IMG/VR virus record: IMGVR_UViG_2609459825_000010
DNA length: 10,589 nucleotides
Source of the DNA: a virus
Taxonomy: Duplodnaviria > Heunggongvirae > Uroviricota > Caudoviricetes
Strand: one strand, 5' to 3'
Made by a program: the position numbers and the translations under genes. Position 1 is the stretch's first letter. The number at the start of each line of letters is the position of its first letter. This document shows positions 2,074-2,887 of this stretch, piece after piece. Below the pieces are notes generated by a model, which had not been told where the DNA came from, did not search any database, and saw only the letters and a program-made list of their open reading frames with translations.

Positions 2074-2466
2074 ATGGGATTCAGAAATTCAGCATCATGC
2101 CTGATAGAGGCGAAGTGTTCTCGTGCTGACTTGTTGGCAGATAGAAAAAAGCGTTTCCGTAAAAATCCCTCTCTTGGCATGGGCGACTGGAGATTCTTTA
2201 TTAGTGAGCCGGGAATTATTTCAATTGAGGATTTACCACCTGGCTGGGGATTACTTCACGTTGTTAACGGAAGAGTACGGAAAGTACATGGGTGGCCCAA
2301 GGGTAATTGCTGTTGGGGTGATCCTGACGATAAGCCATTTACTGGAAATAAGCAGGTTGAATGCGATTACATGTTGTCTGCATTAAGGCGCATGGAGTTG
2401 AGGGGACACCTTAATGAAATATATGACGGTGTAATCGTTAATAAGCAAGAAGGAAGCGCGGCATGA
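2074..2466 (+). CDS. Hypothetical protein (130 aa from ATG 2074; true start uncertain)
   Basis: ORF directly downstream of the O-like gene, with GGAGA at 2056-2060. Its stop overlaps the start of the next ORF (ATGA at 2463-2466), suggesting translational coupling. No family recognised. An internal start (MGDWRFF at about 2179) is possible. Confidence 0.5.
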
Positions 2467-2807
2467 CCACTTTTACCAGAGAGCAGTTAATAGCTCACGC
2501 AGAGGAGACTATTGAAGCACAGAGACTGTGCATACCGGGCACAATCGACCATGACATCATCCGCACATATAAGATGGATATTGCTGTTCTGGAAATCGCA
2601 CTGGCATCGCTGGCAGCAGAGCCAGCCGGTAAATTGCATGAATACAAACCAGTGGGACATCAGCGTCTGGTCGACGAGTTAACCATGCTGGTAAAGCAGT
2701 TAACCTGGCAACTGAGGAAAACGAAGCCGGACTGTAAATTGCCGGGTAAGGCGATGGACTACCTGAAGCGAAACGGACTGATAAGCGCAGAGGATGTTTT
2801 ACGATGA
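2463..2807 (+). CDS. Hypothetical protein (114 aa)
   Basis: Good RBS (AAGGAAG about 8 nt upstream of ATG 2463). ATGA overlaps with both the upstream ORF (2463-2466) and the downstream peptide (2804-2807). No family recognised. Confidence 0.6.
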
Positions 2808-2887
2808 CCTGGCCTGAGGCATTCACAACGGTAGGGATCGCAATGGCGGTGGCGCTGGTGGTGTATTCGATTTGTCGCTGGGGATAA
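2804..2887 (+). CDS. Small hydrophobic peptide (27 aa, [27 protein letters not shown]), predicted single transmembrane helix
   Basis: Below the ORF-track size cutoff; found by reading. ATG 2804 overlaps the upstream stop (ATGA), GAGG lies 10 nt upstream, stop TAA at 2885-2887. Hydrophobic core with a basic/aromatic C-terminus. Confidence 0.4.

Follow-up and report, generated by a model that had tools for sequence, protein, structure and literature searches.

A deletion-truncated nuclease-fold gene and a conserved 27-codon micro-gene upstream of hok in a defective lambdoid prophage

Does a run of overlapping small genes in front of a hok gene form a functional cassette, or is it what mosaic exchange and decay have left of a longer operon? 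The question was raised by a stretch of 10,589 nucleotides of tailed-phage DNA (Caudoviricetes; IMG/VR record IMGVR_UViG_2609459825_000010), which is referred to below, at its full length, as the window. The original prediction, made from the letters alone, had described three translationally coupled open reading frames in the slot that holds relBE in Qin-type prophages and had proposed that they could carry toxin-antitoxin or defence cargo. We confirmed the observation itself: the three frames (2074-2466, 2463-2807 and 2804-2887, named here ORF1, ORF2 and ORF3) lie on the plus strand, the ATGA stop/start overlaps are at 2463-2466 and 2804-2807, and hok/sok follows directly. The interpretation was only partly supported. 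The locus is not a self-contained module and the finding as a whole is an ordinary one, namely mosaic accessory genes in a prophage that has decayed; the 27-aa micro-gene ORF3 is a modest but solid by-product. The features of the left part of the window are as follows.

1..829, minus strand: partial IS66-family insertion sequence, with an orfA carrying HTH_Tnp_1 at 310-747 (Pfam, E=2e-10)
830..1088, plus strand: 3' fragment of a ydaT-like gene cut by the insertion sequence (identity to E. coli SHP24, L005)
1109..2047, plus strand: O' gene, an O-like replication initiator (PHROG 391)
1987..1988, no strand: deletion junction (comparison with SHP24)
1987..2466, plus strand: truncated remnant of a 171-aa PD-(D/E)XK-fold gene of the P7 Upf89.0 family (ORF1 is 2074-2466, 130 aa)
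2463..2807, plus strand: ORF2, an intact gene for a 114-aa mosaic helical protein (PHROG 660)
2804..2887, plus strand: ORF3, a conserved gene for a predicted 27-aa single-pass membrane peptide (ATGA overlap with ORF2)
2895..2922, plus strand: putative hok mRNA promoter, TTGCGG-16 nt-TAGAAT, found by eye
2929..3104, plus strand: hok mRNA leader and sok antisense region (Rfam RF01794, 112 bits)
3042..3254, plus strand: mok/hok reading frame, hok proper at 3100-3254 (Pfam HOK_GEF, E=6e-22)
3323-3349: terminator-like hairpin after mok/hok

We consider with good confidence, for the anatomy and its evolutionary reading taken as a whole, that the window belongs to a defective Qin/SHP24-type lambdoid prophage and that the locus is the surviving distal end of its early-right accessory gene array. 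When compared with intact prophages, homology begins at 830, inside a gene annotated as YdaT in SHP24 (3336-3761). The repressor/cro/pR side of the prophage is missing from the window and the IS66-family element stands in its place; on contigs that share the 829/830 junction, TnpB_IS66 and LZ_Tnp_IS66 genes are found further left. On the other side of ORF3 the order is hok, a 92-aa ORF, DUF968, RusA, Q, an AraC-type gene, three tRNAs, a TerB-like gene, STnc100 and a SASA esterase. The interval between Q and the esterase (6514-8552) is the position of stx in Stx phages; it contains the AraC-type HTH gene (6514-7227), the tRNA trio with anticodons CAT, TCG and TCT (7256-7505), the TerB-like gene (7604-8107) and a match to the STnc100 sRNA (8343-8552, 146 bits).

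Intact relatives are present in E. coli SHP24 (L005) and NMBU-W12E19 (L001). There, the interval from O to the 114-aa gene is occupied by a DnaC-like ATPase, DUF1627, DUF977, DUF4406, an Ea22-like gene, two hypothetical genes and one further ORF, and the ORF1-family gene, ORF2 and ORF3 are part of a long operon of closely packed genes and have no separate promoter or terminator. In NMBU-W12E19 this intact trio spans positions 598237-599173 of NZ_CP042892.1, on the complementary strand. In the window, a strict consensus scan of positions 700-3500 returned no promoter-like site at its threshold, at which it also missed the site seen by eye at 2895-2922. In intact phages these genes would be delayed-early genes read from pR or pL, and their translation would proceed through coupling or from their own Shine-Dalgarno (SD) sites. 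With an insertion sequence in place of pR and with the replication genes destroyed, expression in the window is probably residual at best.

Comparison with SHP24 located the event that created the apparent three-gene unit. Positions 830-1988 of the window are 100% identical to SHP24 3503-4661 and positions 1987-5091 match SHP24 8344-11449, the gap between both flanks being 3,683 bp. The missing DNA corresponds to SHP24 4662-8344 when one copy is counted of the TA shared by both ends, a microhomology of 2 bp. By this illegitimate deletion the O-like replication gene was joined to codon 13 of the 171-aa PD-(D/E)XK gene, with loss of the last ~29 codons of the former, eight whole genes and the first 12 codons of the latter. 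On the O side, the match to PHROG 391 ends at residue 302 of the 320-aa O' ORF (profile position 265 of 298). Homology to the O gene of SHP24 ends at 1988; beyond this point O' reads the following gene remnant out of frame and terminates at 2047. Across 5,426 complete E. coli genomes, all matches to window positions 1800-3300 start at 1987, those to positions 1-2300 end at 1988, and the junction itself is absent. The exact 312-aa O' junction product was found on seven draft contigs only, and this protein, specific to the junction and encoded by none of the complete genomes, marks the deletion as a lineage-specific scar. A deletion that beheads a gene can thus mimic a "novel three-gene operon", and comparison with intact relatives exposes it.

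ORF1 is a remnant of the 171-aa gene because the deletion fused O to codon 13 of that gene, which is intact in NMBU-W12E19, phage P7 (Upf89.0, AAQ07564) and Ss-VASD. The frame is open from 1981, and the ATG at 2074, taken for the start in the original prediction, is an internal methionine codon of the longer gene and its first usable start. ORF2 and ORF3 go beyond chance ORFs, but no gene begins at the ATG of 2074. Compared with Upf89.0, the window copy lacks codons 1-12, the native start codon and its SD; the lost start has AAGGAG at 5 nt, whereas the SD of the internal ATG is weak and 13 nt away. The truncated product could still be translated at a low level, and one draft annotation calls a 130-aa gene. 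In RefSeq/PGAP annotation, the intact and open 171-aa ORF (L001 5965-6480; L005 8308-8823) is labelled as a 179-nt "frameshifted" pseudogene, the rest being left unannotated, which looks like an annotation artefact.

The original prediction recognised no family for the three proteins. ORF1 matches PHROG 9263, only at profile positions 101-230 of 230, and PHROG 631, and ORF2 matches PHROG 660; these are PHROGs of unknown function. The profile and structure checks that had been suggested gave a fold for the ORF1 family and no fold match for ORF2. The AlphaFold2 model of the ORF1 family (mean pLDDT 77.7) displays the alpha-beta-beta-beta-alpha-beta core of the PD-(D/E)XK superfamily and has SPO1766 (PDB 3DNX) and other PD-(D/E)XK nucleases as structural neighbours, so that the model points to membership of this superfamily. 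No Pfam family scored above threshold; weak sub-threshold matches were to Hjc, AHJR-like, MmcB-like and UPF0102. In 36 homologues D15, E25, D28, E41 and K43 are invariant. The first three precede the first ATG, which is residue 30 of the open frame and follows closely on the catalytic Asp, and the product from 2074 has lost them together with the first strand. Only E41-x-K43 remain, and the window product lacks the catalytic D...(D/E)xK signature of the superfamily.

The two downstream genes have a different status. As judged from the loci compared, ORF2 and ORF3 are intact, independent mosaic modules whose ATGA junctions are kept whatever the adjoining gene. The conservation of these overlaps in relatives bears out the original prediction; its single unit does not stand, since ORF1 has been truncated by the 3.68-kb deletion and each of the three recombines independently. 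Indeed, all three occur together in only 26 of the 5,426 complete genomes, each time with the full-length 171-aa gene. In P7 and Ss-VASD, the gene behind the 171-aa gene is Upf89.5 or EaA, ORF2 comes after a different small gene in vB_EcoS-689R5, and in other genomes the ORF3 homology blocks start exactly at 2804 and end at about 2887, with hok present or absent downstream. At least four unrelated gene types precede ORF3, including DUF551, Ea22-labelled and dATP/dGTP pyrophosphohydrolase-domain genes. ORF2 and ORF3 are paired without hok in phage ArgO145 (L023). We also considered an obligatory link between ORF3 and the C-terminal module of ORF2, and rejected it because a DUF551 gene follows that module in L024-L026. 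In ArgO145, the pair (L023 1160-2220) lies in the early-left region of a Stx-type phage and is followed by a convergent annotated toxin-antitoxin pair.

It is on this evidence that the cassette has to be judged, i.e. that the coupled ORFs are one toxin-antitoxin or anti-phage system occupying the relBE slot of Qin, with the 27-aa peptide as its effector or toxin. The coupling is real and conserved, the slot is variable, K-12 Qin has relBE-hokD at the equivalent position, and a nuclease-fold protein with a small membrane peptide is the composition of some defence systems. However, ORF1 is a deletion remnant without the catalytic Asp, the trio is confined to those 26 genomes while each ORF has other partners elsewhere, and the long operon of the intact relatives has no promoter or terminator specific to the three. 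The proposal of toxin-antitoxin or defence cargo also found no match in the Pfam, NCBIfam or PADLOC models for the three ORFs; in PADLOC-DB v2, no family was hit at E<=0.1 by the 171-aa protein, ORF2, ORF3 or two neighbouring proteins. As for a type II system, we found neither a toxin fold (RelE/ParE or other) with a DNA-binding antitoxin, ORF1 being of PD-(D/E)XK type and ORF2 helical without a fold match, nor an autonomous, co-inherited bicistron with its own promoter, the partners varying between loci. We regard the cassette as very improbable.

In K-12 Qin we observed the order dicC-ydfX-ydfW-(flxA, ydfV)-relB-relE-hokD-rem-ydfU-ydfT, which agrees with the position of relBE just upstream of hokD given in the original prediction. 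The window has its hok family and its downstream rem-like, DUF968 and Q genes in common with the hokW/sokW locus of 933W, where sokW is annotated at the equivalent place, and with relBE-hokD of K-12 Qin. In contrast to these, the window hok keeps its own leader and sok region and is preceded by ORF3, not by relE. In the intact relatives, ydfA and the repressor gene flank a RelE/ParE-RelB pair encoded on the opposite strand (L001 1-205; L005 2063-2541). Since this relBE-family pair lies elsewhere, the K-12 relBE-hokD arrangement is a different rearrangement and not the ancestral content of the slot. What remains of the slot idea is that the stretch of accessory genes from the replication genes to hok is highly mosaic, and this stretch is not the counterpart of a relBE slot.

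ORF2 is intact and has more than 160 homologues, among which 114 aa is the commonest length; the family is strongly mosaic and confined to Escherichia and Shigella. A variable N-terminal module (residues 1-52) closes with the motif IALASL(E/A)AEP, IALASLEAEP in most relatives, and is followed by a linker, an optional insert and a conserved, coiled-coil-like C-terminal module of 45 aa (residues ~70-114). In P0064 the N-terminal module is fused to a DUF551 domain, and in P0103 the C-terminal module comes after one. The AlphaFold2 model shows a helical hairpin at residues 6-51 (block-mean pLDDT 81-89 over 11-50) that a disordered linker joins to a C-terminal helix; its pTM is 0.42. A Foldseek search of the PDB with this low-confidence model gave nothing at E<=0.001, and a profile search of PDB sequences returned designed coiled coils only.

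The predicted hairpin, linker and coiled-coil-like helix recall, in layout only, the lambda protein Ea22, described as a short N-domain followed by a coiled coil and a C-terminal domain (PMC10834534). The resemblance to Ea22 and the other exo-xis or "ea" proteins of lambdoid and Stx phages extends to the genes: those of the "ea" type are early, non-essential and strongly mosaic, and in 933W, BP-4795 and ArgO145 relatives of ORF2 and ORF3 adjoin Ea22-like and DUF551 genes in the vicinity of xis/int. Unlike Ea22, ORF2 has a C-terminal module of different sequence, and the array is situated to the right of the replication genes rather than between exo and xis; ORF2 matched neither Pfam Ead_Ea22 (PF13935) nor any NCBIfam model. 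ORF2 may be an oligomerising helical adaptor of Ea type, with the short N-domain and the coiled coil but without the cargo domain of longer relatives.

ORF3, on comparative grounds, is a genuine protein-coding micro-gene under purifying selection. It has exactly 27 codons in 13 of 13 loci, and its start overlaps the upstream stop as ATGA. In its own frame pS is 0.46, pN 0.15 and pN/pS 0.33, with no stop codon, whereas the other two frames over the same DNA give pN/pS values of 1.04 (27 stops) and 1.52 (9 stops). Variable columns number 11, 10 and 19 at codon positions 1, 2 and 3, and between the window and E. coli ECMA0423 (L013) there are seven synonymous and no non-synonymous differences. 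In most loci AGGAGGTGA is found 5 nt upstream of ORF3, within the upstream gene, as an SD of -11.6 kcal/mol; in this window the SD is weak (-6.1 kcal/mol). Frame-specific purifying selection, a fixed length and a start with its SD are thus kept together across diverged contexts. The consensus is M-[TSN]-W-P-[ED]-A-F-x-x-V-G-x-x-M-A-V-A-[LF]-x-V-Y-S-I-C-R-W-G, in which M1, W3, P4, A6, G11, A15, Y21, S22, R25 and W26 are invariant; residues 6-24 have a GRAVY of 2.11.

In keeping with the original prediction, nearly all homologous loci have the 27-aa ORF in intact form. Its start is destroyed in two relatives, by a 1-nt deletion after ATGAC in L004 (3359-3364) and by an ATG>ATA change in L028 (1620-1622), which means either that ORF3 is dispensable or that these are sequencing errors. 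These losses, the position of ORF3 exactly at mosaic junctions and its lack of annotation in the RefSeq and phage records inspected would fit with 84 nt that are not translated into a functional peptide and are kept as a recombination linker or a cis element (UP element or spacer). The excess of changes at third positions, the low pN/pS in this frame alone, the fixed 27 codons free of stops and the near-consensus SD at ideal spacing argue against it; in addition, the downstream neighbour of ORF3 varies, so that there is no single cis target. We hold a non-coding role for quite improbable, and return to ORF3 as a coding gene.

This gene is widely conserved yet almost never annotated. A DNA search found ORF3, almost always at full length, in 1,701 of the 5,426 complete E. 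coli genomes (31%), with up to seven copies per genome. Full-length tblastn matches were obtained in 93 phage records, including 933W, Stx2 II, Min27, BP-4795, YYZ-2008 and the Vequintavirinae phage Av-05, and in 181 plasmids, hosted by E. coli, Salmonella, E. albertii and E. fergusonii. In 933W the gene occupies positions 58829-58912 of NC_000924.1, on the complementary strand. Of those plasmids that were inspected or listed, most are non-mobilizable replicons of 86-111 kb with P1-like phage genes, and one that was checked is IncY. Among GTDB species representatives, ORF3 does not extend beyond Escherichia and Shigella if two tiny contigs, probably contaminants, are set aside. E. coli-type lambdoid DNA was also seen in records of unrelated hosts: "Actinobacillus phage vB_Apl-pPE4" (PP818812.1, L007) contains the C-terminal module of ORF2, ORF3 and hok, a Xanthomonas pisi contig of 431 nt (L016) ORF3 and hok, and an Acinetobacter idrijaensis contig of 369 nt (L015) ORF3 alone. 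The first two are 92-94% identical to the window in DNA; the third has no DNA match to the window and its ORF3 is identical to a P1-like plasmid copy (L012). Contamination or wrong host assignment is the likely explanation for all three.

ORF3 is unannotated in all RefSeq and phage records inspected, including those of 933W, BP-4795, other Stx phages, Avunavirus and P1-like plasmids; a few submitter annotations carry it as a hypothetical protein (e.g. AOM45384.1). Its 84 nt are too short for the length limits usual in gene callers and Ribo-seq work, which accounts for its absence from RefSeq annotation; the cut-off of the Sakai small-gene Ribo-seq study, for example, was at least 30 aa (PMC5597208). 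A literature search by peptide strings found no paper, none of these strings is in the supplements of the Sakai study, and a paper on the modelling of exo-xis proteins mentions no membrane peptide. No homologue is present in Qin or Rac, the two K-12 prophages checked, so that small-protein studies in K-12 could not have seen ORF3 there.

What could the peptide do? KdpF, AcrZ and MgtS are small single-pass inner-membrane proteins of E. coli. ORF3 resembles them, and also the small hydrophobic type I toxins, in its size, single hydrophobic helix, interface aromatics and conserved small-residue face, and it gave a weak, sub-threshold NCBIfam match to KdpF (E=0.024). Unlike all of these, it is phage-borne and translationally coupled, and it has no significant sequence relation to them. 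We infer that ORF3 would insert in the inner membrane with its N-terminus out and its C-terminus in, Trp3 and Tyr21/Trp26 lying at the two interfaces. Its invariant small-residue face (A6, G11, A15, S22) might then, as pure conjecture, pack against a host or phage membrane protein, and this packing could modulate the partner during early lytic growth. Our tentative proposal, which we think has an appreciable but minor chance of being right, is that ORF3 is an overlooked phage micro-protein modulating a specific host inner-membrane protein, e.g. in the lysis-lysogeny decision, in superinfection or in membrane energetics early after induction; the proposed action, taken by itself, is put forward just as tentatively.

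A second explanation is that ORF3 is a small pore-forming or depolarising type I-like toxin, a host-killing early-operon function allied to hok. Its 27 aa, very hydrophobic and predicted to form a single helix, make it a small hydrophobic membrane peptide of the same size class as DinQ, TisB and ShoB, and it often adjoins hok/sok. However, type I toxins have their own transcript and an antisense RNA that acts in cis or trans to control translation, and ORF3 has neither a promoter nor an antisense RNA of its own, being coupled to the upstream gene; Rfam has no family over 2804-2887. The link with hok is also loose. ORF3 occurs without hok in BP-4795, PhiR12_1, Av-05, ArgO145 and P1-like plasmids. 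Conversely, the left edge of hok-module homology is at about 2882 in many genomes, a boundary that leaves ORF3 outside in many chromosomal hok loci. A toxin is therefore unlikely, and we favour the modulator over it. A leader or uORF of hok was also considered and rejected, because ORF3 precedes the hok promoter and is also present where hok is absent. The gene is a cheap and testable candidate for work on micro-proteins and on the poorly understood "ea" or exo-xis regions of Stx phages.

Two minor observations concern the border between ORF3 and hok. Opposite the 933W-type hok leader, a stretch of 9-10 residues, LGLFSICRW, recalls the C-terminus of ORF3 (L008 2160-2186, L006 2662-2688 and L016 167-196, minus strand); with E values of ~0.007-0.03 in a tiny database, and no such match in L001, which is identical to the window, this resemblance is probably due to chance. 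In the window, the putative hok promoter starts 8 nt past the ORF3 stop, with TTGCGG at 2895 and TAGAAT at 2917. In E. coli ECMA0423 and S. flexneri SFBU1023 (L013/L014 1585-1781), an insert of about 190 nt separates the ORF3 stop from the hok leader.
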